Below are positions 5,075-57,962 of a DNA stretch of 62,411 nucleotides, one piece after another. Source of the stretch: Candidatus Thorarchaeota archaeon. Its GTDB lineage: Archaea; Asgardarchaeota; Thorarchaeia; Thorarchaeales; Thorarchaeaceae. The notes below the pieces were generated by a model. The model had not been told where the DNA came from. It did not search any database and saw nothing but the letters and a program-made list of their open reading frames with translations. Location: positions 79,340-141,750 of the forward strand of contig JBHLRQ010000001.1 in assembly GCA_048882385.1 (NCBI GenBank), given 5' to 3'. The stretch's first letter is position 1. Every line of letters starts with the position of its first letter. Both the position numbers and the translations under genes were made by a program.

Positions 5075-5092
5075 TCATACATCGATTCTGAA

Positions 5093-7532: not shown

Positions 7533-7543
7533 TCGTTGTTCTC

Positions 7544-37862: not shown

Positions 37863-37927
37863 CCAATTATCTCCATATTTGACAATAGCACAGCTGAATT
37901 TGGATATTGCGGCTTAGTATTAAGAAG

Positions 37928-38034
37928 TGGCGGGCCCGCCCGGATTTGAACCGGGGATTACTAACTTAGGAGGCTAGTGCCCTATTAACCTCCAACGAGT
38001 TGTTTCTCATTGGTCCAGGCTAGGCCACGGGCCC
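37928..38034 (-). tRNA. tRNA-Arg(CCT) with about 29-nt D-loop intron
   Basis: GGGCCCG/CGGGCCC-GCCA; CTAGC-CT-CCT-AA-GTTAG; insert CCAATGAG..CTCGTTGG hairpin in D loop. Confidence 0.9.
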
Positions 38035-38087
38035 TTGGATTTCTGCGTGTGAGATGTCAGTTGTTAAAGCTTTTGTAGAGTCTTGGT

Positions 38088-43762: not shown

Positions 43763-45904
43763 CTATAAACCCCTCAACAAATCATCAATTTTCTCAAGTG
43801 CATTCTCCGGATCTATTATTTCTCCTTTTTCAGTTACTTTTGGATAGTATTTGCAGTAGAGTTCAAGAGATTTTCCAAGAATCATGACAATGATATCTTC
43901 TCGGGACGGTGTTTCGCCTTCTCTCTCCAGATGTTTGACCATCAAAGATACTGATTGGCTTATTGAGTTCCTAATTGCTCTCCATGATTTCGGAGAAGCC
44001 TCTACTTCCCTACGCTTTCGGCAGACAAGAATCATATCATAGACTATGTTCTCCAAATCATGAAGATGTGTTGAGGCTTTCATCTCACTTCTGACTGGGT
44101 ACGTAGTCACAATAAAAAATCCTGAATCTATAATAGTCCGAAGTAGTGCCGCCCAAGCTTCTTTCTTTTTGTGATGAAAAGTAAAAACCATGATTCCTTC
44201 ATCTGACAGAATCCGATAGCTCTCGGTGAATACTTTGGTCAGACCTGATACAAACTCTTCCTTTCCCTTTCCTTGATACCGATTCTTGATAACTTCTCTT
44301 TCGTGTGGAACAAACTTGGCTTCAAAAAAGCTGTATCGAGCCTTCAGCGCAATCCTCAACCATACGTAGAAGAAGTTCGAGAGTTCTGAGTACATCACAT
44401 TTCCATAGTAGGGTGGATCAGTAACAACAGCATCTGCAACTTTATCTGGAACATCTATTTTCTCTGACGACCCACATTTCAAAAGGACATCAGCATTTTT
44501 CATCAGTTTTTGAAACGTTTTTGCAATTTTTCTTGGTTTTTGCTTTCCAAGTGATATCTTTTGCATTGATGTTCCATCATGTACTCTTTCAAAGGGAGTT
44601 CTAGAGTATTCTTTTCCTTCAATCACCAGGTTGACAAATGCTGTGAAAGCACCTCTTCCCTTTGAAGTGTCATAGCAGTTTGCTTCAACCGGGGACATCG
44701 ATGGTGAAAATGAGTGCGTTCGAAAGATATCAGTGATAAAACCCCTTGTTGCATTGTACTTTGCAAACATGTTATTGTATTTGAGACTGTTTGAGAATGC
44801 CAAAAGAAGGAACTCTTTGATGTTCCAATCATCCACCCTCAATATCCAACGATAGATCTTTCCCAGATTCAAAAGCTGTCTTTGACTGAACATGTCACTG
44901 AATCTCTCATACCCATGATTCAAAGCACGCTTAGTTTCCACTCCCAATGGAATCTCAGAGTCGGGAATAGGTAATTCTCTACAAATTTTCTCATATTCCC
45001 TACACGCTTGATCCAGTATTTTTTGGTCCTTTTCATCTACTGCCTTGTAACCTCTCCCCTTTGCTAATCGTGAGTTTCCAGAAATATCGCAATCCTTGCA
45101 ATAGAACTCGATTGCATACATTTTCTCTTGAAATCTACCCGATCTTTGAACAGAGTGAACTATCTTGTTTCTGTGGCCGCATTTGGAATCTGTGCACACG
45201 TATCTTCGACCTTTGGAAAATGAAACCTCTGTAGGGATGAAATCATGGCCACATTTCTTACATTTTGACGATTTTCGAGCGTTCTTTGCTCGAAAAACAT
45301 CCCAACACTGTGGGCAAACCACATAGTCACCCTTTTCTCCTGGACTCTTTGCCAGGAAGAAATTGCGCATTAAGGGTATTTCTTTTGCGCATTTTGAGCA
45401 TACTCCAACTTTGTAATAGAAATAGTATATGGCTTCAGCAGGACTACTGCACTCTGGGCATGAAGTTTGATAATACTGACGCAGTTCAGGTCCAAGATCT
45501 CTCTCCAGCTCAGCAAGTGAGTTTCGAAGAAGGTCCGGGTCAATATCCTCAATCTGCTTCTTCACGATGAACCAAGAAACCGGGTTTATGTCTCCACCAA
45601 TTACTTTGCATCCAAGTTTTAGCGCTTCAATGACAGTTGTTCCTCCACCCATCATAGGGTCTAAAACAATCTTTCCTCCCAAATCCACATTTTTCGAATA
45701 TTGTTTCCAGAGAATACTTGGATGTGTGTTATCAGAAAGAGAGTAAAGTAGAATTGATCTGAACACTGAACCCAGTCGTCGCGCCCACCATTTATGCATG
45801 ACATAGACTGGTCTATAGTGTCTTCTTCCAAAACCAGTTGATTCCTTCTCAGCAATTTTGTTTACCTGTGAAACTGGGAATGTAGCCTCAATCGGACGCT
45901 TCAG
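43763..45904 (-). CDS. Amino-DNA methyltransferase with Zn ribbons (DUF1156/COG1743-like)
   Basis: HKWWARR, LDPMMGGGTT, several CxxC, TDPPYY; frame stays open 35 codons upstream of ATG 45799 to a CTG behind SD GGAGGT. Confidence 0.9.
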   Translation of the reverse strand: MKRPIEATFPVSQVNKIAEKESTGFGRRHYRPVYVMHKWWARRLGSVFRSILLYSLSDNTHPSILWKQYSKNVDLGGKIVLDPMMGGGTTVIEALKLGCKVIGGDINPVSWFIVKKQIEDIDPDLLRNSLAELERDLGPELRQYYQTSCPECSSPAEAIYYFYYKVGVCSKCAKEIPLMRNFFLAKSPGEKGDYVVCPQCWDVFRAKNARKSSKCKKCGHDFIPTEVSFSKGRRYVCTDSKCGHRNKIVHSVQRSGRFQEKMYAIEFYCKDCDISGNSRLAKGRGYKAVDEKDQKILDQACREYEKICRELPIPDSEIPLGVETKRALNHGYERFSDMFSQRQLLNLGKIYRWILRVDDWNIKEFLLLAFSNSLKYNNMFAKYNATRGFITDIFRTHSFSPSMSPVEANCYDTSKGRGAFTAFVNLVIEGKEYSRTPFERVHDGTSMQKISLGKQKPRKIAKTFQKLMKNADVLLKCGSSEKIDVPDKVADAVVTDPPYYGNVMYSELSNFFYVWLRIALKARYSFFEAKFVPHEREVIKNRYQGKGKEEFVSGLTKVFTESYRILSDEGIMVFTFHHKKKEAWAALLRTIIDSGFFIVTTYPVRSEMKASTHLHDLENIVYDMILVCRKRREVEASPKSWRAIRNSISQSVSLMVKHLEREGETPSREDIIVMILGKSLELYCKYYPKVTEKGEIIDPENALEKIDDLLRGL

Positions 45905-46108: not shown

Positions 46109-46185
46109 CGGGACGTAGCTCAATCTGGCAGAGCAATGGACTGTAGATCCATCGGTTGCCGGTTCAAATCCGGCCGTCCCGACCA
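46109..46185 (+). tRNA. tRNA-Tyr(GTA), intronless
   Basis: C1:G72 acceptor CGGGACG/CGTCCCG-ACCA; ATGGA-CT-GTA-GA-TCCAT. Confidence 0.95.
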
Positions 46186-46199
46186 ATCTCATTTTTCCA

Positions 46200-48041
46200 A
46201 TGTCTACTTTCAAACACAAACAACCTCTTATCAAAGATACGCGAGTAAACACCAGATTCTCTCAGAGGATGTTGGTTGTGGAGGAAAGAGAAGGCATCAT
46301 CATTGCATCGATTTTAGTCATACTTCTCTTGACTGGGACAGTTGTCATCAACATTCTACAAGACACTGATTTGAATGATGAAGATAATTCAGATGATAAT
46401 CCAATACCATCTCCGCCACCAGACACCTCTCAACCTCCTATCTTGATTGATTCAAATGATGATTTTTCATCTCGAGGATATCCTGGAAGCGGAACTGAGA
46501 ATGACCCATATGTAATTTCAAATCTCATAATTACAAACGGCTCATGCATCAAAATTCAATATGTGGATGTCTTCTTCATAATCCGCAATTGTTCTTTCCT
46601 TTACTCTCCACTTCACGGAACTTGTACATACGGTGTTTACTTCTCCAATGTTGTTTCCGGAACAATCGAATCCTGTACATTTGTATCAGCGGGACGTTTC
46701 AGCAACATCGCTATGTATGGTTCTACTAACTGTTCTATCAACAACAACCAAATAGTTGGTAAATACATAGTTCTGAGTGGAGTTTACAATTGCATTGTCG
46801 CGAACAACACCTTAGTAGGAACTGGAATTAGAATATCCAAATCAAAGAATTGTAGCTTCATAAACAACAAATTCACTGATTCAGGTTTTGACATCTATGG
46901 TGAAAACAAAACCTATTGGAAACACAGATTCCTTAACAACACTATTGATGGGAAAGAAGTCGCTTATTTTGAGAATCAGTACAATCAGATCATAGATTTG
47001 ACCAACCATTCTCAGGTATTTGCGATGTCTTGTTCAAATCTGACGCTCGACAACGCAAATCTTACCAACCTTTCAACGCCAATCAACGTGGCATTCAGTT
47101 CAAACTGTATAATAGAGAATGCTGTGATCTCGAAGGTGAATGATGGAGTACTGGTCGTTAATTCAAACAACATAGTAATCAAAAACAGTATCATAAGAGA
47201 TTCTTCATGGTCCGGCATTCGTTTTCGTGACTCAGCATATTGCAGCTCGGTTTCAAATATGATAGTTTCATCAACGGAGTCTATCGTAATTTATTCATCT
47301 CAGTACACAACAGTTCAGTCTTGTGTCATAGCTGATGGTGAGTGGGGTGCCTTTGTTTGGTACTCTGAGGACTGTTTGTTTGATAACAACACTATATCAG
47401 GCAGTCTTGAATCTGGGATAATGGTCTACCACTCTCCAAGATGTCAAATCATTGAAAATAATCTATACAACAATAATGACGGTATTCATGTTACATCTTC
47501 AAATTCATACACAATCTTGAACACTAATTGTTCAAACAATAAAGACTCTGGATTGGACATCTTTCTTTCTGACTCAGGCACTATAAACAACAGTATCTTT
47601 CTATACAATCATCATTATGGAATTCAAGTAGACACCTCAGACTACACTGTTATTCATAACAACACAGTTCAACAAAATGATAGAGATGGAATCGAACTAA
47701 CAGGTGTGACTTTTACCACGGTAGTTGGCAACAATATCTCACACAATACAGGTTCTGGATTATATGCTCTCTACTCCGCTGATTGTTTTGTGCTCAATAA
47801 TACTGTTTACCACAATGAGGATTATGGGATAAAACTTGATGATCTGTGTTCAGGATTTGCCTCATATTACAACAGAAACGGCTGGAATACTGTATTCAAT
47901 GCTTTTGATAATGGCACCGGTAATTCATGGGATGATGGTGCAAGTTTAGGCAATTTTTGGAGTGATTATTCTGGTGCTGGAGTATATCTGATTGCAGGAA
48001 CTGCTGGTAGTATAGACCAATTTCCAGCACTACTTTCATGA
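46200..48041 (+). CDS. Membrane-anchored right-handed beta-helix (NosD/CASH-repeat) surface protein
   Basis: TM anchor, G.GT..DPYVI, repeated N.I..N..GI, GNFWSDY; true start probably downstream of 46200. Confidence 0.85.
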   Translation: MSTFKHKQPLIKDTRVNTRFSQRMLVVEEREGIIIASILVILLLTGTVVINILQDTDLNDEDNSDDNPIPSPPPDTSQPPILIDSNDDFSSRGYPGSGTENDPYVISNLIITNGSCIKIQYVDVFFIIRNCSFLYSPLHGTCTYGVYFSNVVSGTIESCTFVSAGRFSNIAMYGSTNCSINNNQIVGKYIVLSGVYNCIVANNTLVGTGIRISKSKNCSFINNKFTDSGFDIYGENKTYWKHRFLNNTIDGKEVAYFENQYNQIIDLTNHSQVFAMSCSNLTLDNANLTNLSTPINVAFSSNCIIENAVISKVNDGVLVVNSNNIVIKNSIIRDSSWSGIRFRDSAYCSSVSNMIVSSTESIVIYSSQYTTVQSCVIADGEWGAFVWYSEDCLFDNNTISGSLESGIMVYHSPRCQIIENNLYNNNDGIHVTSSNSYTILNTNCSNNKDSGLDIFLSDSGTINNSIFLYNHHYGIQVDTSDYTVIHNNTVQQNDRDGIELTGVTFTTVVGNNISHNTGSGLYALYSADCFVLNNTVYHNEDYGIKLDDLCSGFASYYNRNGWNTVFNAFDNGTGNSWDDGASLGNFWSDYSGAGVYLIAGTAGSIDQFPALLS

Positions 48042-48069
48042 AGTCGAGCGCTTATCATCTCCTAATCAG

Positions 48070-48113
48070 TGTAAATCCATCGGTTGCCGGTTCAAATCCG
48101 GCCGTCCCGACCA
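48070..48113 (+). repeat. att-like copy 1 of tRNA-Tyr 3' half
   Basis: 43/44 identical to 46142-46185; 48075-48113 exact. Confidence 0.95.
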
Positions 48114-48246
48114 CTTATTCTTAAGCTCATAAAGGGCTAGTGTTCAATGAAAGATAGGATTTTTTCGGCAAATGTCGATTTTCGTAAATCTAATAAAACC
48201 ATTCTCCAATGATAGAGCGGAAGATACTATTCAATAGAATAACAAG

Positions 48247-48345
48247 GGTGAGCCATACCGCTTGGTCATATTGGACAATGGTGGTCACACTTAGGGTGTA
48301 TTTGTTCACCAAGACCACCAGCTTTGACCAACTTTGCGGGTTACC
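48247..48345 (+). ncRNA. Candidate structured 5' leader (long interrupted hairpin)
   Basis: Nested pairs GGTGA/TTACC, CCGC/GCGG, TTGGTCA/TGACCAA, TGGTGGTC/GACCACCA, GGTG/CACC. Confidence 0.55.
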
Positions 48346-48363
48346 TATATAGCCGTGATATTC

Positions 48364-49548
48364 ATGTCATGGAGCGCATCAGAGAACGACGCAGTAGACT
48401 CAATCAGGATTGCAGTACTAGGTGCTGGACACGCAGGCAGAGGACTCGCTGGTTATCTCTCTATTCAAGGATTTGATGTTTCTCTCTATAATCGCACAAT
48501 TGCAAATGTCAAGAAAATATCGAAAAGAGGAGGAATCAAGGTTCAGGGTCTCTATGATTCATTCGCCTATCTCCCCCTGGTCACAGATGACATAGCCAAG
48601 GCTATTGAAGACCGTGATATACTGATTGTTGTTGTCCCTGCACAGGCACACACCTTTTTTGCAAAGTCTATTTCTCCTCATCTAAAATCAGGACAGGCAA
48701 TACTTCTGATGCCAGGTAGGACTGGCGGTGCACTTGAGTTTGCCCAAATCTTAAGGTCACAATCTCATACTAGTCGAATTTTGTTAGGTGAGGCTCAAAC
48801 ATTCAGCTTCGTATCACGGATTACTGGAACAGACTCTGTGCTGATTTCCAAGGTTAAGAACAGTACTAGGGTAAGTGCTTTTCCAGCATCTCGCAACCAC
48901 CAATTTCTAAGGAGTCTAAGACGACTTCCAATTACGTTCAGTATGGCTGATGATGTTATGGAAACCAGCCTTGATAATGTCGGTGCGATGCTACATCCAA
49001 CACCCACAATTCTCTGTGCAGGTCTATTAGAGTCTAAAGAAGGTGGATACAACCACTATCATGATGCTATTTCTGAATCAGTAGGACGACTAATAGAACG
49101 AATGGATGCTGAAAGGATCAATGTTTCTCGTGAGTATGTTTCTCATCCTGTTTCTCTTCTGGAATGGTTGAGGACCACCTATGATGCTGAAGGAACTACA
49201 CTTTGTGATTGTATTCAAAGTATTGATGCCTATGATGATGTGGGCAGCCCTTCGTCACTGAATCATCGTTACGTTTTAGAAGATGTACCCACAGGTCTCG
49301 TACCCCTCTCCCATCTTGGAAAATTAGCCGGAGTTGAAACTCCTGCAATAGATGCAGTAATCAACATGGCCTGTCAGCTTTATGACTGTGACTTCTGGAA
49401 CACCGGAAGGAATCTTGAAAACATGGGTGTTGAGGGACTGAATCCGTACGAAGTACGGGAATATGCCAGAACTGGAGTCATGCCGGATCAATATCCCGAA
49501 TGGCATGAGTTTTCTGACTTTTTTGGATTGGAGGTGGATGATATTTGA
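48364..49548 (+). CDS. NAD/NADP octopine/nopaline (opine) dehydrogenase family protein
   Basis: AVLGAGHAG, LMPGRTGGALEF, ETSLDNVGAMLHP, HRYVLEDVPTGLVP; ATG 48364 preferred. Confidence 0.88.
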   Translation: MSWSASENDAVDSIRIAVLGAGHAGRGLAGYLSIQGFDVSLYNRTIANVKKISKRGGIKVQGLYDSFAYLPLVTDDIAKAIEDRDILIVVVPAQAHTFFAKSISPHLKSGQAILLMPGRTGGALEFAQILRSQSHTSRILLGEAQTFSFVSRITGTDSVLISKVKNSTRVSAFPASRNHQFLRSLRRLPITFSMADDVMETSLDNVGAMLHPTPTILCAGLLESKEGGYNHYHDAISESVGRLIERMDAERINVSREYVSHPVSLLEWLRTTYDAEGTTLCDCIQSIDAYDDVGSPSSLNHRYVLEDVPTGLVPLSHLGKLAGVETPAIDAVINMACQLYDCDFWNTGRNLENMGVEGLNPYEVREYARTGVMPDQYPEWHEFSDFFGLEVDDI

Positions 49549-51203
49549 GAATCTTGGGAGCTGCTATAGGAAGTTGCGTCCATGTGGCTGGTGTTCTCAG
49601 ATTTCTCACACTCGCGGAGGAAGAGGGACATGAAACAATCTTCTTGGGACCAGCAGTTTCTATAGATGAATTGATAGTGAAAGCAAAGGAACACAATCCT
49701 GATGTTATCGGTGTGAGTTATAGACTTACAGCGATTAGCGCGGAAAAGCTTCTTGAAGACTTGAAGAGCGCTGCAGAAGAATCAGGTTTAGAGAAGAAAC
49801 GATGGGTGCTTGGTTGTACTGCGCCAGTCAAACCTATCGCAGAGCGAACCATGTTTTTTGAGGAGATATTCACCGGTTTCTCGACTGATGAGGACTCAAT
49901 CAATTTTCTACGTGGTCGTACACACATGCCGCTAGAAGAAAAGTATCCTCAAGACTTGATGACAAGAATGACTATGAAGAGTCCAATTCCAATCATAAGG
50001 CACCACTTTGGTTTACCTACAATTGAAGAAACTGTACATGGTGTCCAAAGAATTGCAGAGGCATCTGTCCTAGATATTATCTCTATTGGACCTGATCAGA
50101 ACGCTCAAGAATCATTCTTTCAGCCATCTAAGATGAACGAAAACCTTGACGGCGATGGAGGCGTCCCGCTTAGAGAATCCAAAGACTTGCAGCGAATTTT
50201 TGAAGCCTCACGAAGAGGTAACTACCCACTCCTGAGATGTTATAGTGGTACTCGTGATTTGTTATCTTGGGCACAGCTGCTAAAGAACACCATCAACAAC
50301 GCGTGGTGTGCAACACCTCTGTTATGGTATAGTGAGCTTGATGGAAGAAGCAAGAGACCTCTTGAGAAAGCCATAATGGAGAATCAAGAGAATCACCGAT
50401 GGCATACAAAAAATGACATTCCTGTAGAAATCAATGAGTCACATCACTGGAGCTTGAGATGTGCTCATGACACAATCGCAGTTACCATGGCATATCTTTC
50501 TGCATACAACGCAAAGAAATCTGGTGTAAGACACTACATTGCACAATACATGCTAAACACACCCCTTGGAACTTCTCCAAAGATGGATCTTGCCAAGATG
50601 CTTGCAAAAATCGAACTTATCGAGTCACTTCATGATCACAATTTTGTATCTCTAAGACAAGTACGTCCTGGTCTTTATTCCTATCCTCCCGATCTAGACA
50701 TGGGTAAGGGTCAACTTGCATCATCAATTTACACCGGAATGATGCTGAAACCACATATCGTGCATGTCGTTGGCTTCTGTGAGGCCAATCATGCTGCAAC
50801 TGCAGACGACATCATTGAGAGTTGCAAAATTGTACGAAGAATCATTCATGACTGTCTTCTTGGAATCCCGAACCTGTTAAACGACAAGGAAGTGGTGATG
50901 CGCAAGAATGAGCTTGTCAAAGAAACCCGACTACTCACCGCTACAATACAATCTCTGGGGGATGAGTCTTCAAAAGACCCACTCATTGAACCTGTAACAT
51001 ATGTACACGCAGTAAAAGAGGGAGTTCTAGATGCACCACATCTGAGAAACAATCCCATTGCCAAGGGACTACTCAGGACCAAGATGATTGATGGTGCTTG
51101 TTTGGCAATAAATCCAGACACAGGCAATCCAATTGATGAAAGCACAAGATTAAGGAAACTAGGTATAGAAATAGCATCCACGCACTCTCTATCTAGCAAA
51201 TAG
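49545..51203 (+). CDS. Cobalamin-binding domain protein with large uncharacterised catalytic domain
   Basis: N-terminal GSCVHVAG (DxHxxG-like), FLGPAV, IGVSYRL; overlaps upstream stop. Confidence 0.8.
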   Translation: MRILGAAIGSCVHVAGVLRFLTLAEEEGHETIFLGPAVSIDELIVKAKEHNPDVIGVSYRLTAISAEKLLEDLKSAAEESGLEKKRWVLGCTAPVKPIAERTMFFEEIFTGFSTDEDSINFLRGRTHMPLEEKYPQDLMTRMTMKSPIPIIRHHFGLPTIEETVHGVQRIAEASVLDIISIGPDQNAQESFFQPSKMNENLDGDGGVPLRESKDLQRIFEASRRGNYPLLRCYSGTRDLLSWAQLLKNTINNAWCATPLLWYSELDGRSKRPLEKAIMENQENHRWHTKNDIPVEINESHHWSLRCAHDTIAVTMAYLSAYNAKKSGVRHYIAQYMLNTPLGTSPKMDLAKMLAKIELIESLHDHNFVSLRQVRPGLYSYPPDLDMGKGQLASSIYTGMMLKPHIVHVVGFCEANHAATADDIIESCKIVRRIIHDCLLGIPNLLNDKEVVMRKNELVKETRLLTATIQSLGDESSKDPLIEPVTYVHAVKEGVLDAPHLRNNPIAKGLLRTKMIDGACLAINPDTGNPIDESTRLRKLGIEIASTHSLSSK

Positions 51204-51210
51204 TTCCCAA

Positions 51211-51257
51211 GACTGTAGAATCATCGGTTGTCAGTTCAAATCCAGCCGTCCCAACCA
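51211..51257 (+). repeat. att-like copy 2 (degenerate) of tRNA-Tyr 3' half
   Basis: 41/47 identical to 46139-46185. Confidence 0.9.
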
Positions 51258-51327
51258 TTTCTTTTCCTACAATCTTAGAACCACCAAACTACAAATCCAA
51301 GCAATGCTATACTGGAGGACAATCCTA

Positions 51328-52299
51328 TCACGAATTGGGATTGATTGAGATTCCAAGAACACGGACAAGTTCCTTGTAGCGATTACGAATTGTGACCTCT
51401 GTGACTCGTGAAATTGCAGCTATTTCCCTTTGAGTGCGTCTATCATCTTCAAGTATTCCAGCAATATAGAGCGCAGCTCCTGCGATTCCTCCAGGATCCT
51501 TTCCCATGGTTATGTATCTCTCTTTTGCTTCCTTGATTATTTCAGTCGCCCTCTTCACAGTTCTTCCTTCTAATACAAGATCGGAGGACAATCTTGGTAT
51601 CAAGTCTTGTGCGGAAGCAAGTGGTACATTAGTATCGGTTCGAGAAACAATCAGACGAACTGACTGACCAATCTGTTTCCTATCCAAGTTTGTTTCAGTC
51701 ACAATTTCGTCCAGTCGTCTTGGAATTCTATGAATCCGACAAGCAAGGTAAATTGATGCTGCAACTACTGATTCAATACTTCTTCCCCTCACAAGTCTAT
51801 TTGCCAGAGCCTTTCGATATATCAAAGCCGCAGATTCTCTGATATCACGTGGAACTCCGAGTTGTGAAGAGAGTCTCTCCATCTCACTCATTGCAATACT
51901 GAGATTCCTGTGTTCTGAAGTATGGAGCCTGCTTCTGATATGCCATTTTCGCATTCTGTAAATAGCGGCACGAGTACTACCTGTGAGTGCCTTTCCACTT
52001 GCATCCCTATTTCTCCAATCAATCATGGTTGCTAGGCCTTTATCAGCTATAGTGAAAGTACTTGGCGCACCTGTTCTTGCTCTTGAGTTCCTCTCTTCTG
52101 TGGTAAATGCTCTCCATTCAGGACCAGTATCAGCAATACGCTCAGATACAACAAGCCCACATACCGTACAGGTATTCTCTCCTCGAGAATAGTCTTCTGT
52201 GAAAAGACTTTGTCCGCAACCCATACACACCCTTCTCTTTCTTGAATTTGCCACTTTGACTTCTGCGGAGTCTTTCATGCTCAGTGCCTCTTTTGCCAT
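51328..52299 (-). CDS. tfb: Transcription initiation factor B
   Basis: Zn ribbon, DTGPEWRAF B-reader, two cyclin repeats, VTEVTIRNRYKEL. Confidence 0.96.
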   Translation of the reverse strand: MAKEALSMKDSAEVKVANSRKRRVCMGCGQSLFTEDYSRGENTCTVCGLVVSERIADTGPEWRAFTTEERNSRARTGAPSTFTIADKGLATMIDWRNRDASGKALTGSTRAAIYRMRKWHIRSRLHTSEHRNLSIAMSEMERLSSQLGVPRDIRESAALIYRKALANRLVRGRSIESVVAASIYLACRIHRIPRRLDEIVTETNLDRKQIGQSVRLIVSRTDTNVPLASAQDLIPRLSSDLVLEGRTVKRATEIIKEAKERYITMGKDPGGIAGAALYIAGILEDDRRTQREIAAISRVTEVTIRNRYKELVRVLGISINPNS

Positions 52300-52653
52300 T
52301 CTTTTTCACTTCATGATTGTAGCTCAGATCTAAAGTAGGACTTTTCGGGATTCGTACAAATAGACTATCAACACATTCTATCTGCCTAATCGGCTATTAT
52401 ACGGGAATACGACGAAATTAACTCTCTACTTATTCTCTCAATCAATACATCATGTTAATACTTGCTTATAAGTGGGTTCTTTTAGTAATCAATCCAATTC
52501 CAATTGTCCCAATCATCATCCAGATTTGTGAAAATCATCCCCGACTGAATGAGCTTTGATCTTGTAGATGCGGCACACCCCAGTCCTTATTAACAATGGT
52601 TAACAATCTATATTCGCCGAAATACGGTGAATAAGGGATAGTGAGGTAACAAT

Positions 52654-53592
52654 ATGGCAATCAGTAAGAGCAATCAATTCGATGTAGCAATTATCGGTGG
52701 AGGTCCAGCCGGACTGTCTGCTGGCATCATAGCGGCATATAAGGGACTCAAGGCAGCTATATTCGAAGGTGGTACATGGGGCGGTCTCTTATCGACAATA
52801 TATCCATACAAACATGTCTTCAATTATCCGGGCACACCGAAAATAATGGCTTCTCACTTAGTTGCTGAATGGGTTCGCCAAGCTGCAGATTTGGGAGTTC
52901 GTTTGATTAAGGAGCGAGTCACAGAAATAACAAGTGAAAAATCTGTAATTACCACTGAAGATGAATACAAAGCTCAAGTAGTCATTATCGCGACAGGGAT
53001 GCGTCCAAATACGCTTGGAATACCCGGTGAAATTGAATTCAGCAAGAAGGATCGCGGTGTCTTTCCATATGTGACTGACCCTGAGTTGTTTCGTGACAAG
53101 AAAGTACTGGTAGTTGGAGGAGGGGACACAGCTATAGATGCAGTCATTGATGCTCATAATGTGACCCATGAAATTTGGGTTGCACATAGGAAGGATGAAT
53201 TTCGGGCTGCAGAAACAAGGGTAGATATGATATTGAAGGAGAAGATGGCTGAGCCTCTATATAATACAGAACTTGTGGAAATTAGAGGAAAATCAGAGGT
53301 TGAAGAAGTCACACTTCATAATAATCAGACCAAAGAGAATTTGACTTTGGAAGTTGATCGTGTGATAATTGCTGTTGGATTAGTTCCCAACATAGAGGTT
53401 TTTGATCACTTGGGTCTCAAAATGAATGGACGGTTCATTGTCGTGGATGCTGAGATGAGGACCAATATCGAAGGTGTCTTTGCTGCTGGAGACATTATTT
53501 CAGTATATCAGTTGGCTTCAGTGGCTGCAGCCCAAGGAGCTCTTGCTGCACATAATGCCTACAAGTATATCAGAAAACCATACTGGGCATAA
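52654..53592 (+). CDS. Thioredoxin-reductase-like flavoprotein without CxxC (FNR-type)
   Basis: IIGGGPAG, VVGGGDTA, TNIEGVFAAGD; VFPYVTD at the usual CxxCD position. Confidence 0.85.
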   Translation: MAISKSNQFDVAIIGGGPAGLSAGIIAAYKGLKAAIFEGGTWGGLLSTIYPYKHVFNYPGTPKIMASHLVAEWVRQAADLGVRLIKERVTEITSEKSVITTEDEYKAQVVIIATGMRPNTLGIPGEIEFSKKDRGVFPYVTDPELFRDKKVLVVGGGDTAIDAVIDAHNVTHEIWVAHRKDEFRAAETRVDMILKEKMAEPLYNTELVEIRGKSEVEEVTLHNNQTKENLTLEVDRVIIAVGLVPNIEVFDHLGLKMNGRFIVVDAEMRTNIEGVFAAGDIISVYQLASVAAAQGALAAHNAYKYIRKPYWA

Positions 53593-53742
53593 TAACCCAA
53601 TTTAGTTCTCTGATCATTGCACTTCATATCAGAAGATAATTATACCTTTTATTTGGAATTAATTTTCAAAGTATTTGTTAATGAAGACTCTGAATGCTCT
53701 TCAACAAAAACACATTACCTTTTGAAAACGAGTGAATAACTC

Positions 53743-54624
53743 ATGACACTGTCAGTAAAAATAGATACATCATTTATCGTGCCATTACTCCATTATCTTT
53801 CAAAGCCCAGCAAAGAACTACTTATTGAGATAACCAGTCACGATGCTGCTATTAAGACACATTCACACGCTCTTAGATTTCGAAATACTACAAAGAGCAT
53901 TGGTCATTTCTGGAAAGGCATTCTGAAACAGCTATCAGAGGATGATACTTTGATAGATTCTGTAAAAAGCAACTTGACCTATATCTACAATGAAACTGAC
54001 ATATTCAATGAACTCCTCACAGATTTATGGAAGTACTTTCCAGACGGTACATACCTGAGAAGCGTTCTGTATACGATTCTGGGATACGATATTGGAATTG
54101 TATCCGAAGGCTATGCACTCATCAACTTGGGACACCACGATTTTCACAGAGATCCACGCGAAATTCTCTATATGGCAATGCATGAACTACATCATGTAGT
54201 CTTCACTGCCTATAATCCCATTTTTGACCTCTCCCAAATTCATCGTACTGATCAATTGTTCGATGTCGTGAAATATTGTACTCATATGGAGGGTCTTGCT
54301 GTATATTCCATATTGGAACAAAGAAAAGCTGCGAATGCACTGAATAATCGTGACTACAAGTTACTCCTTGATGACAGAGCTACGACAAAACGAGTATCAG
54401 AATATTTCGACATTCTTACGGATTTAGAGATTCGAGCTGATAGTCCTCTCCGTGAAGAAGACTGGAGGATTCTCGATAGAATGAGTGACAGAGATAGACT
54501 CTGGTATGTAGCAGGGGCTCACATGGCTCAAATGATTGAAAAGAATCTGGGACGTGAAACACTGATTGAAACCATGAGATTAGGTCCGGATGACTTCTTC
54601 AAGACATATCACGAGTCGTTTTGA
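53743..54624 (+). CDS. Putative Zn-dependent protease (DUF5700-like)
   Basis: HELHH...EGLA, WYVAG..MA. Confidence 0.7.
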   Translation: MTLSVKIDTSFIVPLLHYLSKPSKELLIEITSHDAAIKTHSHALRFRNTTKSIGHFWKGILKQLSEDDTLIDSVKSNLTYIYNETDIFNELLTDLWKYFPDGTYLRSVLYTILGYDIGIVSEGYALINLGHHDFHRDPREILYMAMHELHHVVFTAYNPIFDLSQIHRTDQLFDVVKYCTHMEGLAVYSILEQRKAANALNNRDYKLLLDDRATTKRVSEYFDILTDLEIRADSPLREEDWRILDRMSDRDRLWYVAGAHMAQMIEKNLGRETLIETMRLGPDDFFKTYHESF

Positions 54625-54631
54625 TGATTAT

Positions 54632-55135
54632 TTACTCAAGTCCAGTATCTGAATCAATAAGATATGATATGAAATTGATAAGGCGGTCACGATGACTCTG
54701 ATCTATTGCTGATAGCTCCAATGTAGGTAATCTTGTCATTTTTTCAATTCGCCTTTTGGTGAATCTGTCTTTCAAGTCCTGTTTGTTTGCTATTATTGCC
54801 AATCGGGTATTTGGAAAAACCTGTCTCATGAACTTCAAAGAGTACTTAATTCTATTAACGTCCTCTCTGGAACTATCTGAAACAATAATGACGTAGCGGT
54901 TGAATTTTGGACTTATTTCTAAAAAAGAAGCCGCGAAAACTCCGAGTCGCTCTGGTTCAAAGCTGGATGTCTGAAGCTCCCAAATAGTGTATGAAGTATC
55001 TTCAGCTTTGAGTTGATATGTAGTACCTCTGCTTTCAGCTCCTCTATCTAATAGTTTCACAATTGCTGTTTTTCCCACTTGCGAATCACCAATTAAAGCG
55101 AGGGAAATTTGGTTCTTAATCTCTATATCAAACAC
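54632..55135 (-). CDS. Divergent small GTPase-like protein
   Basis: G1 GDSQVGKT, G4 ANKQD, G5 LSA; G3 DxxG replaced by WELQ. Confidence 0.75.
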   Translation of the reverse strand: MFDIEIKNQISLALIGDSQVGKTAIVKLLDRGAESRGTTYQLKAEDTSYTIWELQTSSFEPERLGVFAASFLEISPKFNRYVIIVSDSSREDVNRIKYSLKFMRQVFPNTRLAIIANKQDLKDRFTKRRIEKMTRLPTLELSAIDQSHRDRLINFISYLIDSDTGLE

Positions 55136-55223
55136 CTACAAAATCACATGTTTCATCATTTGTTGAATTGCTCACTAAAGCAAGCTACACAGATAGAGGA
55201 CTTTCCAATGATCTGAATCAGGT

Positions 55224-55907
55224 CTATTTCAGATTTAATCTGTCCTTGACATCTTTTACTCCAACTGTGTTGTATGCACATTCTAGGGCTGTTTCGTAAG
55301 CTGCACGATTAGAAAGTTCTCCAGAGATTGTAACAACTCCATCTTTAACTTTGATATCTACTTCATCTGCATTTACTGCATAGCTTCTGTCAACCGCGTT
55401 CATTATCTCCGTGGCAATGACCTGGTCCGTTACTTTCGCTGTAGGCACAACTGTCAGTTTATTCTCAATATCAATAACACCTATCACATCTGAAGCAATT
55501 TGCTGTGCACGGAAAGTCTTCCAATATGCATCGACATGTCCTTCAAGTGATACTTCTCCTTTCTTTACTCTAACCTGAATGTTCTCCTTACTGGTACTGT
55601 CATTCCATTTTAGCTGCTTTTCGATACTTTCCTTGATTTGTGAATCAGTCAGTATCTTTGCTGTGGAAGGAAACCTGACAAAGGAGTTATTGTTTACCTT
55701 CTTGACTCCTGGAACTTTCCAAGCTGTGAAAAGAGCGGCTTCCTTTATACCATAACTAGGAACAGTGCCTCTTAGAGTTACAACCCCATCTGTAACTTCA
55801 ACATGAATATCTGAGGCGTCAACACGATTGTCCCAGTATAACATATCTACAACTGCTTTCTTGATTTGTTCATCTTTTGATTTCATTATTTTCTTATCCT
55901 TATACAT
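55224..55907 (-). CDS. Triple BON-domain protein
   Basis: Three repeats D..I...V....I.V.V..G.V.L.G...A..V.GV..V.N.L. Confidence 0.92.
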   Translation of the reverse strand: MYKDKKIMKSKDEQIKKAVVDMLYWDNRVDASDIHVEVTDGVVTLRGTVPSYGIKEAALFTAWKVPGVKKVNNNSFVRFPSTAKILTDSQIKESIEKQLKWNDSTSKENIQVRVKKGEVSLEGHVDAYWKTFRAQQIASDVIGVIDIENKLTVVPTAKVTDQVIATEIMNAVDRSYAVNADEVDIKVKDGVVTISGELSNRAAYETALECAYNTVGVKDVKDRLNLK

Positions 55908-56014
55908 TATATATACAATAGAGGTTTAATAAGTGTTATGATAGAGACAAATTTAAGATAAAATAAAAGTCATTTATTGAACACATTTATAAGAACAAAT
56001 AATAAAAGAACATT

Positions 56015-56272
56015 ATGGAAATTAATGAAATAAGAACTAAATCAGAGAAAAATTTGAGATACCGTAGGGGAAGAACAAGAAACTACCCACGTTTCAAGAA
56101 AGTTCTGGAAAAATATAGAAAAACTGGTGATCCACTCAATCTTGATGATGTCGTGAAATTTATGGGTGTTTCTCATCATAGTCTTAGAAACTATGCAAAA
56201 GAATTGAACCTTCGGATGATTGTTATGACTGATGAAGAGGGAATTCGATGGGTAGCTTTCAAGGAACTGTAG
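56015..56272 (+). CDS. Small basic hypothetical protein, possible HTH
   Basis: LNLDDVVKFMGVSHHSLRNYA; AT-rich upstream region. Confidence 0.55.
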   Translation: MEINEIRTKSEKNLRYRRGRTRNYPRFKKVLEKYRKTGDPLNLDDVVKFMGVSHHSLRNYAKELNLRMIVMTDEEGIRWVAFKEL

Positions 56273-56831
56273 AATATTTGTCGTCCTGACTATATCTTTT
56301 TCCAAGTGCGCTTGCAAAATCCTCAATCTCTCTTTGATTCTGAAGAATATACACATTCTTACTTTCTCTCAGTCTATTCAAGAATCTGAGGATTACTGGT
56401 TTTCGTGTCCGAGGATAATCCCAGATCCAACGAATGAAATCCAAGTCAATCTTCTCAGGACACCCTTCAGTTACATCTGGTCGTGTCTTTCCCCGGTTTC
56501 TTAGGTATCTAGAGAACACACGGAAGTACGATAATCTACGTGTCATATCTAAGAAAATTAGAGTATCTGCGGCTTTTGCACGCATCTTCAGCGTTGATGT
56601 ATAGTTCCCGTCCATAACCCAAGTTTCCGAAGCAATCAATTCTTTGACCTTGTCTATCCATTCGTCCTTAGGAGTTTCCACCCAGTTTGGTTTCCAGTAA
56701 TGCATGTCCAGATGGACTGATGGAATACCAAGAATTCTACTAATTCTTCCTCCAACTGTAGACTTTCCTGACCCGCTTGGACCTAGAATCAATATTCTTC
56801 TGGGAGGAGAATTCGGAAACACTGGTTGCAT
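56259..56831 (-). CDS. Adenylate-kinase-like / FlaR topology modulation protein family
   Basis: GPSGSGKST, HLD..YW.PNW, WVMDGNY, GCPEK. Confidence 0.85.
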   Translation of the reverse strand: MQPVFPNSPPRRILILGPSGSGKSTVGGRISRILGIPSVHLDMHYWKPNWVETPKDEWIDKVKELIASETWVMDGNYTSTLKMRAKAADTLIFLDMTRRLSYFRVFSRYLRNRGKTRPDVTEGCPEKIDLDFIRWIWDYPRTRKPVILRFLNRLRESKNVYILQNQREIEDFASALGKRYSQDDKYSTVP

Positions 56832-56975
56832 GTCAATTAGAAATGAACCGAATCATCCTTTCTTACTTTTTGGTCTGATTAGTAGTAATTCAATATCAGG
56901 TCTTCTCCAACTTTGCCATTTTTGTAGATTCTGATACTTTGTCGTCCCTTGATTACATCATCAATGTCCATCAGA

Positions 56976-57962
56976 TTACTGAACATCTTCTGGGAGCTGA
57001 ATTACGAAACTACACTCGATATCTCCCTTCAATGCAGATTTCACCATCTCATACTCAAGTGGCCGATCTAGTGCAGCCTCCCAAGGCATCTTTGTAAAGC
57101 CTCCGCTACAATGACAGAAATTTACAGAAACATCAACATTGTCATCCAGTATTGACTCACGAGCCCACGCACAGTGACATGCATAGTATCTCTTCTTCTT
57201 CTCATCCTTTTCATTAAGAAACTCCTGTACCATGTATGGAATTTTGGTATGGTAGATTGTGTTTCCTCTTCTCTCGCCACTTAAGACATCAGGGCGACTT
57301 TTCACATAATCAACGACAGCATCAGTAATGTATTGATTGTAAAACAGTGTACCTTCATCCCTATGTTTCTCTAGTTCTGCGATTGCATCCTCTCGTTTCT
57401 GTTTCAGATATTCATCAATACTTCCAGCTTTTAGGAACTTTTCACGCTCCCCTTTTCTGAAGTCGCGTGGCAGACCATGAGCTACATCGGCTAAGATTTT
57501 CTTACAATCAGATGGCTCCAGTATTTTCTCCATCTTTTCTACCACTTCTCGAGTGACCATCATTTTGTCTGTGTCAGGCATACCTAAATGAGGTAGCTTC
57601 TCTTCTGGTAGAATCTCATCACGTTTCTTTTCACCAACATGTTCACCAAGCCGTTCGCGGAGGACATTCATTACTTCTCCCCCATCGAATATCGCCAGAA
57701 CTGGCAGATACAGATCCATGTTTTGCAAAAAGTATGCATACCGAGAAATTGCAGCATAGTTGAGATATGTGTTCAATCCTTCATCAATCAAAACCCTAGA
57801 GAAGTTGTTGAATTCATCCTCTCTAGCAGTTTCTAAAGTCCTGTCAAACTGTTTCAGAAACTTCTCGAATCTTTCTACCATCTTTATGTTTTCAACAATC
57901 TGTTCCTCCTGAACAGGCTGATCCCTGTCCGTCAAGTACTTTCGAAATCCATCCTTGTCCAT
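56976..57962 (-). CDS. Hypothetical Cys-motif protein (DUF6144-like)
   Basis: YYACHCAW, FCHCSGGF, S.LKGD..C.F. Confidence 0.7.
   Translation of the reverse strand: MDKDGFRKYLTDRDQPVQEEQIVENIKMVERFEKFLKQFDRTLETAREDEFNNFSRVLIDEGLNTYLNYAAISRYAYFLQNMDLYLPVLAIFDGGEVMNVLRERLGEHVGEKKRDEILPEEKLPHLGMPDTDKMMVTREVVEKMEKILEPSDCKKILADVAHGLPRDFRKGEREKFLKAGSIDEYLKQKREDAIAELEKHRDEGTLFYNQYITDAVVDYVKSRPDVLSGERRGNTIYHTKIPYMVQEFLNEKDEKKKRYYACHCAWARESILDDNVDVSVNFCHCSGGFTKMPWEAALDRPLEYEMVKSALKGDIECSFVIQLPEDVQ

Follow-up and report, generated by a model that had tools for sequence, protein, structure and literature searches.

Integrase-free gene modules bounded by tRNA-Tyr 3'-half repeats at a putative genus-wide hotspot in Asgard archaea

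Two gene modules lie in tandem on the 3' side of an intact tRNA-Tyr gene in this Thorarchaeota-like Asgard archaeon, each closed by a copy of the 3' part of the tRNA, and sequence comparison points to the locus as a genus-wide hotspot. The explanation we favor, with about even confidence, is serial Campbell-type insertion at tRNA-Tyr of DNA bearing its own tRNA segment, probably catalyzed in trans and followed by reshuffling through host recombination. The window analyzed is the whole 62,411-nucleotide stretch of DNA; G000 denotes this genome, G044 a closed outgroup chromosome, and other G numbers relatives. The features of the locus are as follows.

43763 to 45799, minus strand: DNA methyltransferase, 678 amino acids (aa) (Pfam N6_N4_Mtase, 1e-15); left-flank backbone gene, 5' of tRNA-Tyr
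46109 to 46185, plus strand: tRNA-Tyr(GTA), intact and intron-less (ARAGORN; Rfam RF00005, 71.6 bits); putative attL and insertion point
46186 to 48069, plus strand: module 1, 1,884 bp, with a single, NosD-like gene
46200 to 48041, plus strand: NosD/parallel beta-helix protein, 613 aa (Pfam Beta_helix, 1e-39, and NosD, 1.8e-34; NCBIfam para_beta_helix)
48070 to 48113, plus strand: repeat 2, a copy of tRNA-Tyr positions 34 to 77 (43/44); putative attR scar of module 1
48114 to 51210, plus strand: module 2 (ODH-B12 module), 3.1 kb, two genes and a conserved 220-nt spacer
48334 to 49548, plus strand: octopine/nopaline-DH-like gene, 404 aa (Pfam Octopine_DH, 4.9e-41)
49545 to 51203, plus strand: B12-binding and MutE-like fusion, 552 aa (B12-binding, 2.3e-9; Met_asp_mut_E, 0.0023, under the curated cutoff)
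51211 to 51257, plus strand: repeat 3, a decayed copy of tRNA-Tyr positions 31 to 77 (41/47); putative attR scar of module 2
51258 to 56975, no strand assigned: distal part of the island, without recognizable repeats, containing the next seven features (Pfam)
51328 to 52299, minus strand: TFB/TFIIB
52654 to 53592, plus strand: thioredoxin-reductase-like (TrxR)
53743 to 54624, plus strand: DUF5700
54632 to 55135, minus strand: Arf-like GTPase
55224 to 55907, minus strand: BON protein
56015 to 56272, plus strand: small ORF
56259 to 56831, minus strand: AAA_18 P-loop protein
56976 to 57962, minus strand: f1, 328 aa, weakly DUF6144-like; first right-flank backbone gene, followed by unk5-SDR-HEAT-SIS-DinB

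The tRNA-Tyr gene is 77 nt long, with CCA encoded in the gene (ARAGORN), and its sequence is 100% identical in G008, G016, G018, G022, and G044. A repeat finder returned one direct family of three copies, at 46142 to 46185 (the reference), 48070 to 48113 (98%, 43/44), and 51214 to 51257 (86%, 38/44), with spacings of 1,928 and 3,144; blastn-short lengthened the third copy to 51211 to 51257 (87% over 47 nt). Against the full 3.7-Mb genome the E values were 4e-16 for repeat 2 and 8e-5 for repeat 3, and the whole-genome search confined copies of the tRNA-Tyr 3' part to this locus. Both copies start in the anticodon loop or stem, at tRNA positions 31 to 34, and end exactly at CCA, with a T-rich terminator-like tract 3' of each. 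The cargo is closely packed: 14 nt separate the tRNA end from the first ATG of the NosD-like ORF (46200), 28 nt separate its stop codon (48041) from repeat 2, and 7 nt separate the B12/MutE stop codon (51203) from repeat 3. The first-pass annotation, made from the sequence alone, had described this intact tRNA, the one-gene and then two-gene intervals, and the 43/44 and 41/47 copies, and ARAGORN, Rfam, the repeat search, and blastn-short bear it out; its statements that the repeats begin at the anticodon loop and lie within about 30 bp of the cargo stop codons agree with the positions and distances measured here. A split tRNA gene (3' half) was considered and rejected: tRNA-Tyr is intact, its copies occur only at this locus, and Rfam finds no further tRNA.

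At least one repeat beyond tRNA-Tyr is present in 13 of the 18 genus genomes examined. The repeat-bounded intervals number 27, with a median of 1,296 bp and a range of 180 to 17,699 bp; 24 are no longer than 3.2 kb, and the 17.7-kb interval belongs to G022. An empty site, which the first-pass annotation had proposed to look for, is seen in closed G044, where the methylase and tRNA-Tyr are followed about 33 bp past the tRNA end by f1-unk5-SDR-HEAT-SIS-DinB. The methyltransferase also lies 5' of tRNA-Tyr in nine genus loci, the same f1-to-DinB order is found 3' of arrays across the genus, and all genes of the distal part (51258 to 56975) are missing between tRNA-Tyr and f1 in G044. Judged from that empty site, window positions 46186 to 56975, about 10.8 kb, constitute an island. 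The same architecture is carried by tRNA-Phe, with a 567-bp module in this genome and modules in several relatives; stacks at other tRNAs, which the first-pass annotation had proposed to look for, thus do occur in smaller form. The relatives are metagenome-assembled genomes, and assemblies may hide or scramble elements; G016 has tRNA-Tyr at two loci, which may come from separate strains.

Aligned against relatives, the repeats are true module boundaries. In comparisons with G014, G016, G024, and G007, whose upstream neighbors differ, homology sets in exactly at repeat 2 and takes in the ODH-B12 module; in comparison with G008, whose downstream neighbor differs, it stops about 19 bp past repeat 3. 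The content of the locus varies among relatives, as had been anticipated, and so does the order: ODH-B12 precedes TFIIB in this genome, and TFIIB precedes ODH-B12 in G011, yet the two TFIIBs are sisters in the tree (97/96); in G008 the TFIIB block is likewise proximal to ODH-B12. In other genus genomes, repeats enclose the TFIIB and TrxR blocks, and the array of G023 carries the defense-type genes Mrr, NucS-like, and TIR.

Module 1 is the newest, lineage-specific arrival in this genome. Its NosD-like protein, which has a hydrophobic segment at the N terminus, has no ortholog among the 27 other genus genomes (best match, 32% identity), and its GC content is 0.37 to 0.39, versus 0.43 to 0.44 for module 2. 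The ODH-B12 module, present in single copy here, occurs in nine genus genomes with 79 to 91% protein identity, similar to that of backbone genes, and is found directly 3' of the tRNA in a relative that is about 69% identical. By these comparisons it is an old resident, mostly vertically inherited, and not a recent capture. The ODH and B12 identities track those of the backbone, and therefore ancient events with vertical descent can explain most of the array, with little ongoing mobility. The sequential capture of cassettes proposed in the first-pass annotation is partly supported: it fits the module boundaries and variable content, and ODH-B12 does not support it as a recent event. The fall in repeat identity with distance from the tRNA holds in this array but is no rule, since 10 genus arrays comprise five that are monotonic, four that are not, and one that is tied.

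Pfam detected no recombinase in the three cargo proteins of modules 1 and 2, and a six-frame search of the whole genome gave no match to PF00589, in keeping with the original observation that no integrase or fragment is recognizable; PF00239, PF16795, and PF01797 also had no match in this genome. PF00589 was without a match in G044 and in 20 of 28 genus genomes, its matches in the other eight never fall on an array contig, and PF07508 matched none of the 28. No Pfam recombinase was found in the ORF families searched, namely, 95 of 106 from the genus loci (one representative each) and 19 from the metagenome loci; the sole mobile-element match among them was TnpB, 5' of the tRNA. The unannotated array ORFs unk23, unk25, unk39, and fam72 were examined by sequence-profile and atlas look-ups, and one of them may be an integrase of an unrecognized family. 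Free elements bearing a matching attP were not found (a 32-mer had 0 matches in viral contigs), no tRNA-like sequence lies within about 1.5 kb of the integrases at 20 genus integrase loci, and no autonomous element sharing both att and integrase was found in viral contigs, in the metagenome loci, or near the same 20 integrases. Because there is neither a matching attP element nor a tRNA-like sequence near these integrases, a trans-acting integrase is something we purely infer. The contigs searched for a joint spanning a cassette are k-mer unitigs, which are interrupted at the 44-nt repeat, and none contained one; neither circular junctions, empty-site reads, nor excision joints were seen.

Each module might instead be the residue of a larger integrase-bearing virus or plasmid at tRNA-Tyr, with the integrase and replication genes later lost. 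Islands linked to tRNAs usually end this way; islands with partial tRNAs and fragmented integrases are described in Prochlorococcus (10.1101/2020.12.28.424599), and integrase-bearing Asgard elements at tRNAs are among those reported in PMC8813620. The 17.7-kb interval of G022 would suit such an origin, as would the contigs of five relatives that break right at the tRNA. We consider this account unlikely nonetheless. None of the intervals (0/27) contains an integrase, no array contig in the genus carries a six-frame PF00589 remnant, and ordinary host-type genes form much of the cargo. With gaps of only 14 and 28 nt around NosD and 7 nt after B12-MutE, deletions would repeatedly and independently have ended within a few nucleotides of att. 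Large integrase-bearing elements at this site, the finding that would have spoken for deletion remnants, were not seen in 18 genus genomes or in 43 metagenome loci (those with 2 kb on either side of the match), all of the latter in chromosomal contexts. The contigs of the five relatives stop at or within about 260 bp past the tRNA, and large elements could be hidden there.

How modules entered is indicated by the relatives in which proximal and distal tRNA copies differ. In G022 a full intron-less tRNA is followed, 688 bp on, by a copy of positions 7 to 77 with a host-type intron, and long copies of the same kind are present in L112 and G011; these sequences indicate that the incoming DNA carried a tRNA segment. 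Duplication of a target site by a casposase/Cas1-like enzyme or a transposase cutting with a stagger of about 44 nt, at the anticodon loop and 3' end, would after fill-in give the same layout of full tRNA, insert, and half tRNA, with polar addition at the tRNA end. Such duplication cannot produce the intron-bearing long copies, which differ from their proximal partners in extent as well, and the module ends show no apparent terminal inverted repeats. An assembly artifact is contradicted by the same architecture in many independent assemblies and by a contig from an independent study that matches 46156 to 48104 with 0 differences. We regard these two explanations as extremely improbable. A casposon proper, with a target-site duplication of 14 to 15 bp and terminal inverted repeats, was rejected; the repeat here is 44 to 71 nt, its copies may differ in intron content, and no such inverted repeats are evident.

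Host homologous recombination could also account for much of the array by itself: a few ancient integrations would have seeded the repeats, and modules would pop out as circles or pass between related cells and re-enter by RadA-type recombination over the 44 to 77 nt of tRNA or longer flanking homology, without a site-specific recombinase, with NosD arriving by allelic replacement from the array of a relative. The genomes without a recombinase (G000, 20 of 28 genus genomes, and G044) are consistent with this. Duplicated segments also reach well past the core: a 250-nt piece comprising part of the "unk18" segment and the core is duplicated beside TFIIB, with five copies 87% identical over about 200 nt, and some duplications run at least 200 nt past the tRNA core. 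Native backbone genes (FDP, TrxR, and unk25) occur as repeat-bounded modules, the FDP-TrxR "module" of G008 being orthologous (FDP, 84 to 86%) to backbone genes of G017, G006, and G012, and long copies (7/8 to 77) differing in intron status fit a crossover of two tRNA-Tyr alleles. Against recombination alone, the repeats of at least five independent modules (NosD, DUF3800, unk25, TIR, and TFIIB) all begin inside a 3-nt span, positions 32 to 34, and stop exactly at CCA, a pattern that marks an anticodon-loop att core and is not that of random homologous crossovers. The first joining of a new gene to a tRNA fragment is left unexplained, and no donor array with NosD was found. We think it unlikely that host recombination was the only agent. 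Repeat extents vary by event (7/8 to 77 versus 31-34 to 77), which together with the duplications past the core points to events of more than one kind, with homologous recombination in addition, and not to one integron-like machine.

Integrons hold ordered, compact cassettes of variable order, each ending in a copy of the recombination site, and the first-pass annotation had likened the array to one. A dedicated platform of this kind would use one recombinase encoded elsewhere to capture and reshuffle promoter-less cassettes at tRNA-Tyr as attI, the first being read from the tRNA promoter. Here the cassettes are compact, att follows the stop codon directly, and the NosD ATG lies 14 nt past the tRNA; cassette content and order vary between related genomes, and defense-type cargo occurs in G023. 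Nevertheless, no conserved recombinase is found in the genus, and no intI lies beside the array (PF00589 is absent from G000, all genus array contigs, and G044), the upstream neighbor being the DNA methylase. The repeats are tRNA 3' halves, with no attC-type site; the orthologs of repeat 3 behind B12-MutE are decayed or truncated differently in G000, G022, G014, G016, and G008, and therefore the sites are not maintained as attC sites are. A T-rich tract backs each repeat, many modules have their own upstream region (the 220-nt ODH spacer) or lie on the opposite strand (TFIIB), nothing indicates a shared promoter, and vertical inheritance is seen for the ODH-B12 module. With sites that decay by lineage, extents that vary, and duplications that exceed the core, the integron comparison fails, and we judge a dedicated platform highly unlikely.

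Serial insertion, the reading we prefer, would make the locus a long-lived insertion hotspot common to the genus, an accretion island 3' of tRNA-Tyr. A module would enter by a Campbell-type single crossover between chromosomal tRNA-Tyr and incoming, probably circular, DNA carrying its own tRNA 3' copy, usually the roughly 44 nt from the anticodon loop through CCA, in some cases positions 7/8 to 77. The crossover would rebuild the tRNA beside the newcomer and leave the displaced 3' part distal to the cargo as an attR scar, and later arrivals would push older modules outward. The modules are non-autonomous, with one to three genes and no recombinase; tyrosine integrases of transient elements outside these genomes probably catalyzed the crossover in trans, and host homologous recombination between repeats would account for a share of events, deleting, duplicating, and re-ordering modules, native chromosomal genes included. 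In this genome NosD-like is newest and ODH-B12 ancient, with its scar decaying; because no recombinase is encoded, the array is probably static now. An integrase-poor cassette economy, in which minimal circles of one to three genes and one tRNA 3' half leave and re-enter tRNA-Tyr, and on a smaller scale tRNA-Phe and other tRNAs, through a recombinase in trans or of an unrecognized family, would be an archaeal analogue of the integron with a tRNA gene as attI, and would as a side effect turn intron-containing tRNA genes intron-less; we consider this unlikely.

Islands linked to tRNA genes and tandem integration are textbook. Williams in 2002 reportedly described an anticodon-loop class of tRNA-targeting tyrosine integrases, whose elements resemble the array in a direct repeat from the anticodon loop to the tRNA 3' end (about 44 nt), an intact, restored tRNA at one end, and site re-use that yields arrays; they carry a defining integrase gene, and no integrase lies by att here. 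CIMEs of streptococcal ICE families are flanked by att sites, lack their own integrase, stack in tandem at a single site, and are mobilizable by the integrase of a related element. The modules share the attL and attR flanks and the lack of recombination genes. They differ in being archaeal, based on a tRNA, and far smaller; no autonomous partner element sharing their att was found, and their mobilization is putative. Gene capture of the SSV type at archaeal tRNA genes was reportedly described by She in 2001; it too leaves archaeal elements trapped at tRNA genes, with the tRNA 3' part directly repeated on either side. An SSV-type element was rejected: it leaves Int(N) and Int(C) halves at the ends, neither was found, PF16795 and PF00589 give no signal, and the 14 and 28 nt of noncoding sequence at the module 1 ends leave no room for them. 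Gene capture by such "suicidal" integrases is described in Sulfolobales and Thermococcales (PMC7253208). Archaeal att sites of 29 to 69 bp (She et al. 2002, quoted in PMC6563490) are known, and the smallest thaumarchaeal cryptic element reported in that source, 2.6 kb, still encodes an integrase (PMC6563490). The mini-Yucahu-i of Atabeyarchaeia is a 2.6-kb integrase-less Asgard element for which a few reads are reported as evidence of circularization (PMC11529989); as presented there, it lies inside a larger integrase-bearing element and is neither tRNA-linked nor in an array, unlike the modules here. Also close are the tycheposon-driven islands of Prochlorococcus (10.1101/2020.12.28.424599), described as lying beside specific tRNAs, with older material pushed outward, scattered partial tRNAs, niche and defense cargo, and some island genes no longer within a functional element. 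That report counts 937 integrase-carrying elements along with fragmented integrases (10.1101/2020.12.28.424599), in contrast to none in any array here, and the present modules are much smaller (median, 1.3 kb) and belong to an Asgard archaeon.

Less familiar is a genus-wide array at one tRNA, with 27 intervals lacking an integrase and most genomes, including a closed chromosome, lacking a tyrosine recombinase. If the modules are fossils, they provide a clean, datable record of serial insertions, framed by conserved backbone genes and with an empty site known for comparison. If they are still mobile, they would point to an unknown or trans-acting recombinase, and the closest prokaryotic relatives of eukaryotes would have in them a simple means of acquiring and shuffling genes. 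The arrangements in G022 and G011 also provide a concrete mechanism by which a tRNA can lose its intron, through recombination with an intron-less tRNA segment borne by an element.

A repeat search of the window returned one direct family only, with three copies, at a tRNA-Tyr gene. The features of the locus are as follows.

46109-46185, + strand: tRNA-Tyr(GTA), short variable arm, 77 nt, CCA encoded (ARAGORN; confirmed by Rfam)
46142-46185, + strand: reference copy, the last 44 nt of tRNA-Tyr (repeat search)
46200-48041: parallel beta-helix/NosD-like ORF (Pfam, 1e-39)
48070-48113, + strand: repeat 2, 43/44 identical to the tRNA-Tyr end (repeat search)
48334-49548: octopine-DH family ORF, ODH (Pfam, 5e-41)
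49545-51203: B12-binding domain ORF (Pfam, 2e-9) with a weak, sub-threshold MutE match, B12-MutE
51214-51257, + strand: repeat 3, 38/44; extended by blastn-short to 51211-51257, 41/47

The NosD-like ORF (module 1) starts 14 nt past tRNA-Tyr and stops 28 nt ahead of repeat 2; in module 2, which consists of ODH and B12-MutE, the stop codon of the latter lies 7 nt ahead of repeat 3. Pfam identified no recombinase among these three cargo proteins. The tRNA, repeats, and module layout drawn in the first-pass annotation proved accurate by ARAGORN, repeat search, blastn-short, and Pfam. Both copies of the tRNA-Tyr end are confined to this locus in the whole 3.70-Mb assembly (E values of 4e-16 and 8e-5), which comprises 256 contigs, is 95.3% complete and 4.94% contaminated, and has the window as the final 62 kb of its contig C1. 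The 220-nt spacer from repeat 2 to the ODH start (48114-48333) is about as well conserved between species as coding sequence and presumably carries module 2's own promoter or regulatory element.

tRNA-Tyr matched 22 of the 24 other genus genomes drawn, often repeatedly per contig, and 20 stretches with the locus, retrieved from 17 of these genomes, were mapped for tRNA copies and ORFs. A variable array lies between tRNA-Tyr, whose conserved left backbone comprises an ECF transporter and a DNA methylase pointing away from it, and a conserved right backbone of AAA_18, nitroreductase, f1 (a flank gene), unk5 (an unannotated family), SDR, HEAT, SIS, and DinB. An nhmmer repeat profile delimited 27 intervals between consecutive same-strand copies, at 14 loci in 13 of 18 genomes including G000, the genome of the window; their median size is 1296 bp (range, 180-17699 bp), and 24 are 3.2 kb or less. 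TFIIB stands alone in five intervals and beside one small unnamed ORF in another, ODH and B12-MutE form a clean pair in four, and other contents are FDP with TrxR, hemerythrin, DUF3800, Mrr, a NucS-like nuclease with a TIR protein, a SAM methyltransferase, and several unknowns. Further module combinations came from 43 metagenome loci with the same core (the 44-nt 3' part of the tRNA): ODH-B12 directly follows tRNA-Tyr in loci L082 and L120, as does FDP-TrxR in L117, and L101, without ODH-B12, TFIIB, or FDP-TrxR, has a sole 99-aa unannotated ORF between tRNA-Tyr and the unk5-SDR-HEAT backbone. Contents and order differ among relatives, a variability looked for from the first-pass reading of the locus as stacked cassettes.

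Two neighbouring repeat-bounded modules in the relative G023 (stretch L039, 5241-8102) are of defence type, the first with the Mrr restriction endonuclease and the second with the NucS-like nuclease and TIR-domain protein. Many relatives have a long TnpB-like gene (~520-557 aa, Cas12f1-like TNB domain) ~200 bp upstream of tRNA-Tyr, in the same orientation, where G000 has the methylase (L039 of G023, 3246-4895; L049 of G012, 7096-8745; L088, L100, L112, L114, and others). The G016 MAG has two tRNA-Tyr loci (contigs C86 and C52), an intron-less one with an upstream methylase and an intron-bearing one with a three-module array; this bin is probably a mix of two strains (contamination, ~6%).

The TFIIB gene beside the locus, tRNA-SeC, and many intron-bearing tRNAs in G000, with the Arf/Roc-type GTPases and PCI-domain proteins encoded in relatives' arrays (Pfam), mark an Asgard archaeon, and the exact tRNA-Tyr 3' part is shared by public Thorarchaeota, Promethearchaeota, and Hermodarchaeota MAGs. 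G000 has six TFB/TFIIB paralogs, 48-67% identical (window 51328-52299, minus strand; contigs C4, C58, and C89); the gene in the island forms a repeat-bounded module of its own in five or more other genus genomes, with up to three TFIIB genes per array (G022). An intron-containing tRNA-like gene at window ~37925-38035 (5' GGGCCCGTGG ... 3' GGGCGGGCCCGCCA on the minus strand) escaped ARAGORN, both in default mode and in a genome-wide run with -i, as well as Rfam (E ≤0.1), and was spotted solely via T-arm similarity to tRNA-Pro.

We compared the G000 ODH-B12 module and its flanks with seven other genomes. Against G014, G016, G024, and G007, similarity starts at, or a few nucleotides from, the first base of repeat 2, and the upstream neighbours there differ (DUF3800, unk25, TFIIB, and fam88, where unk25 and fam88 are unannotated families); against G008, it stops ~19 bp past repeat 3, where the downstream neighbour is FDP, not TFIIB. 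The tRNA-derived repeats are the module boundaries. Order varies as well: TFIIB is distal to ODH-B12 in G000 and proximal in G011, the two TFIIBs being sister (97/96 support), and a block of TFIIB, DUF5700, BON, unk9, and rSAM that is proximal to ODH-B12 in G008 has its orthologs distal in G000.

ODH and B12-MutE share 79-91% identity with orthologs in eight genomes, a range like that of f1 and SDR from the backbone of those genomes (63-91%), and ODH-B12 already adjoins tRNA-Tyr in a relative ~69% identical at the DNA level; the module is therefore ancient and mostly vertically inherited. Its distal att scar, the displaced duplicate of the tRNA-Tyr 3' part, is orthologous in five genomes in differing states (41/47 in G000, 89% in G022, 98% in G008, 5' part gone in G014, and deletion-cut to 25 nt in G016), and is therefore not maintained. 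No ortholog of the NosD-like gene was found in 27 other genus genomes, the best match being 32% identical and within a large paralogous family, and its GC content is 0.37-0.39 versus 0.43-0.44 for module 2; it is a lineage-specific arrival, probably a recent one. Copy identity, proposed to fall away from the tRNA, does so monotonically in 5 of 10 genus arrays and not in 4.

In G044, a closed 3.16-Mb Thorarchaeota chromosome, tRNA-Tyr is identical to that of the window, and the order is methylase, tRNA-Tyr, ~33 bp, and f1-unk5-SDR-HEAT-SIS-DinB, with no repeat; G044 serves as outgroup, because its backbone proteins are 48-69% identical to the homologs in genus relatives. Given this empty site, window 46186-56975 is an island of 10.8 kb and ten genes relative to the G044 state, with recognisable scars left behind only its first two modules. 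G003 is almost empty, with tRNA-Tyr, a small conserved segment (unk18), and then f1. A conspecific empty site was sought in metagenomes, where the best contig is 92% identical, and hence none is of the same species.

In G022, an intron-less full tRNA-Tyr and a hemerythrin gene are followed by a copy of positions 7-77 that has the intron usual in tRNA-Tyr of relatives. The 6-77 copy in L112 and its proximal gene differ in intron pattern, and G011 has an 8-77 copy behind unk23, an unannotated ORF. Such long copies, differing in intron status in G022 and L112, show that the incoming DNA brought a tRNA-Tyr segment of its own, which recombined with the host gene by crossover. An origin of the copies by fill-in of staggered cuts was rejected, since it cannot yield displaced copies with different intron content. 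Scar boundaries in at least five independent modules (NosD, DUF3800, unk25, NucS-TIR, and TFIIB) fall at positions 32-34 on the 5' side and exactly at CCA on the other, which is the layout of anticodon-loop att sites. The anticodon-loop class of tRNA att sites was reportedly distinguished by Williams in 2002. Archaeal att lengths are put at 29-69 bp in a passage of PMC6563490 that quotes She 2002. Short copies from positions 49-54 were considered as T-loop-class att events; the G016 copy behind B12-MutE is orthologous to a longer copy and was shortened by a deletion, and because at least one short copy arose in this way, we do not rely on a second att class.

tRNA-Tyr of the genus has 0, 1, or 2 introns per species, at ~positions 15/16, 23/24, and 38/39 (L032 of G022, 4596-5403; L038 of G011, 1-1402; L112, 1926-3442). 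The functional intron-less copy in G022, proximal to the displaced 7-77 copy that keeps its intron, suggests tRNA intron loss via recombination with an element-borne intron-less segment.

Among the 106 ORF families of the genus loci and window, 95 were run through Pfam by one representative each (the remaining 11 representatives are window ORFs), as were 19 further representatives from metagenome loci, and no match to an integrase, resolvase, or DDE/HUH transposase resulted; mobile elements were represented by TnpB alone, upstream of tRNA-Tyr in G012 and G023. Sequence profiles (NCBIfam, PHROGs) revealed no hidden recombinase among 10 unannotated array ORFs, and a protein atlas gave none for unk23 (scores ≤0.80). 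The 16 ORFs new in L133-L140 and 30 in G044 were screened by six-frame PF00589 search only. In such searches, PF00589 had no match in G000 or in closed G044, where no XerA-type dimer-resolution enzyme is therefore detectable; PF00239, PF16795, and PF01797 had none in G000, and PF07508 had none in 28 of 28 genus genomes. PF00589 matches occurred in 8 of these 28, all on non-array contigs, mostly 2-3.5 kb long, and 7 of the 13 array-bearing genomes had none. No tRNA gene or tRNA 3' end was present at any of the 20 genus integrase loci. These integrase negatives carry the caveats that mobile elements are under-represented in MAGs and that five relatives' contigs end at tRNA-Tyr or within ~260 bp past it. 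The first-pass statement that no integrase is recognisable at the array holds for the window cargo, for G000 with PF00589, and for the 27 intervals. As a separate observation, tyrosine recombinases of PF00589 are wholly missing from 20 of the 28 genus genomes.

A 32-mer used to search for a free attP had 0 matches in viral contigs. A looser 25-mer gave seven viral loci, all rejected: five are tRNA-Pro genes inside phage tRNA clusters, and two are tRNA-end fragments of bacterial type, high in GC and unlike the core in their variable region. Contigs of four of the 20 sequencing runs (X5, X6, X11, and X13), whose unitigs break at the repeat, contained no cassette-spanning join and no listed circle joint; because of this breakage, an X5 contig spans exactly 46156-48104. 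NosD depth was zero in X6, with ~66% of the run read and 0.93 of sampled words present, a value not readable as absence.

If the modules were deletion remnants of larger elements, that origin would have to be squared with 27 intervals devoid of any integrase trace and with modules that leave only a few nucleotides to the att copy at either end, and the model is strained for these reasons. The integron-like array proposed in the first-pass annotation, as a dedicated system, is unlikely, because the arrays have no conserved recombinase alongside them, their sites decay, a T-rich, terminator-like tract follows every copy, and many modules either bring upstream regions of their own or are encoded on the opposite strand.

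A ~550-nt conserved segment with the small gene unk18 lies between tRNA-Tyr and the next copy in G024, G015, G007, and several metagenome contigs, and a 250-nt piece of it (the 3' part plus core) is duplicated beside TFIIB, five copies being 87% identical over ~200 nt. Genes that belong to the backbone in G017, G006, and G012 are the orthologs of the FDP-TrxR module of G008 (FDP, 84-86%; TrxR, 77-81%). Homology extending past the core therefore served in some rearrangements, which also relocated native genes. The unk18 ORF (106 aa) has no family match, and its segment occurs beside tRNA-Tyr or its copies in many genomes (for example, L033, 6942-8800; L035, 5661-6625; L046, 5568-6057).

Similar stacks at other tRNAs, also raised by the first-pass annotation, were found at tRNA-Phe. 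On G000 contig C125 (28-703), tRNA-Phe precedes a 567-bp module with a single reverse-strand ORF, behind which 32 nt of the tRNA 3' end are repeated (positions 46-77, 31/32), and downstream copies also occur in G042, G013, and G019 and possibly in G011 and G024. tRNA-Tyr is thus the main hotspot and not the sole one.

The data fit a course in which DNA bearing a tRNA-Tyr segment would insert serially at the tRNA by Campbell-type events, after which old scars would decay and recombination between copies would reshuffle the modules. Because core boundaries are uniform, we tentatively favour events seeded by an integrase, which may have acted in trans, over host recombination as the source of the insertions. 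The closest described system is island building in Prochlorococcus (10.1101/2020.12.28.424599), where integrases and their fragments are abundant. CIMEs and integrons are further systems of comparison. Among archaea, three articles describe Asgard elements that integrate at tRNAs and carry integrases (PMC8813620), a 2.6-kb integrase-less circularising mini-element within a larger Atabeyarchaeia element (PMC11529989), and tRNA fragments as attR scars of 9-23 kb elements (PMC9897764). No description of integrase-free, tRNA-anchored module arrays in archaea was found in literature full text. We conclude that the feature is real and reproducible and is a tRNA-anchored accretion island, a known kind, for which the small size of the modules, their number, and the absence of integrases are unusual.
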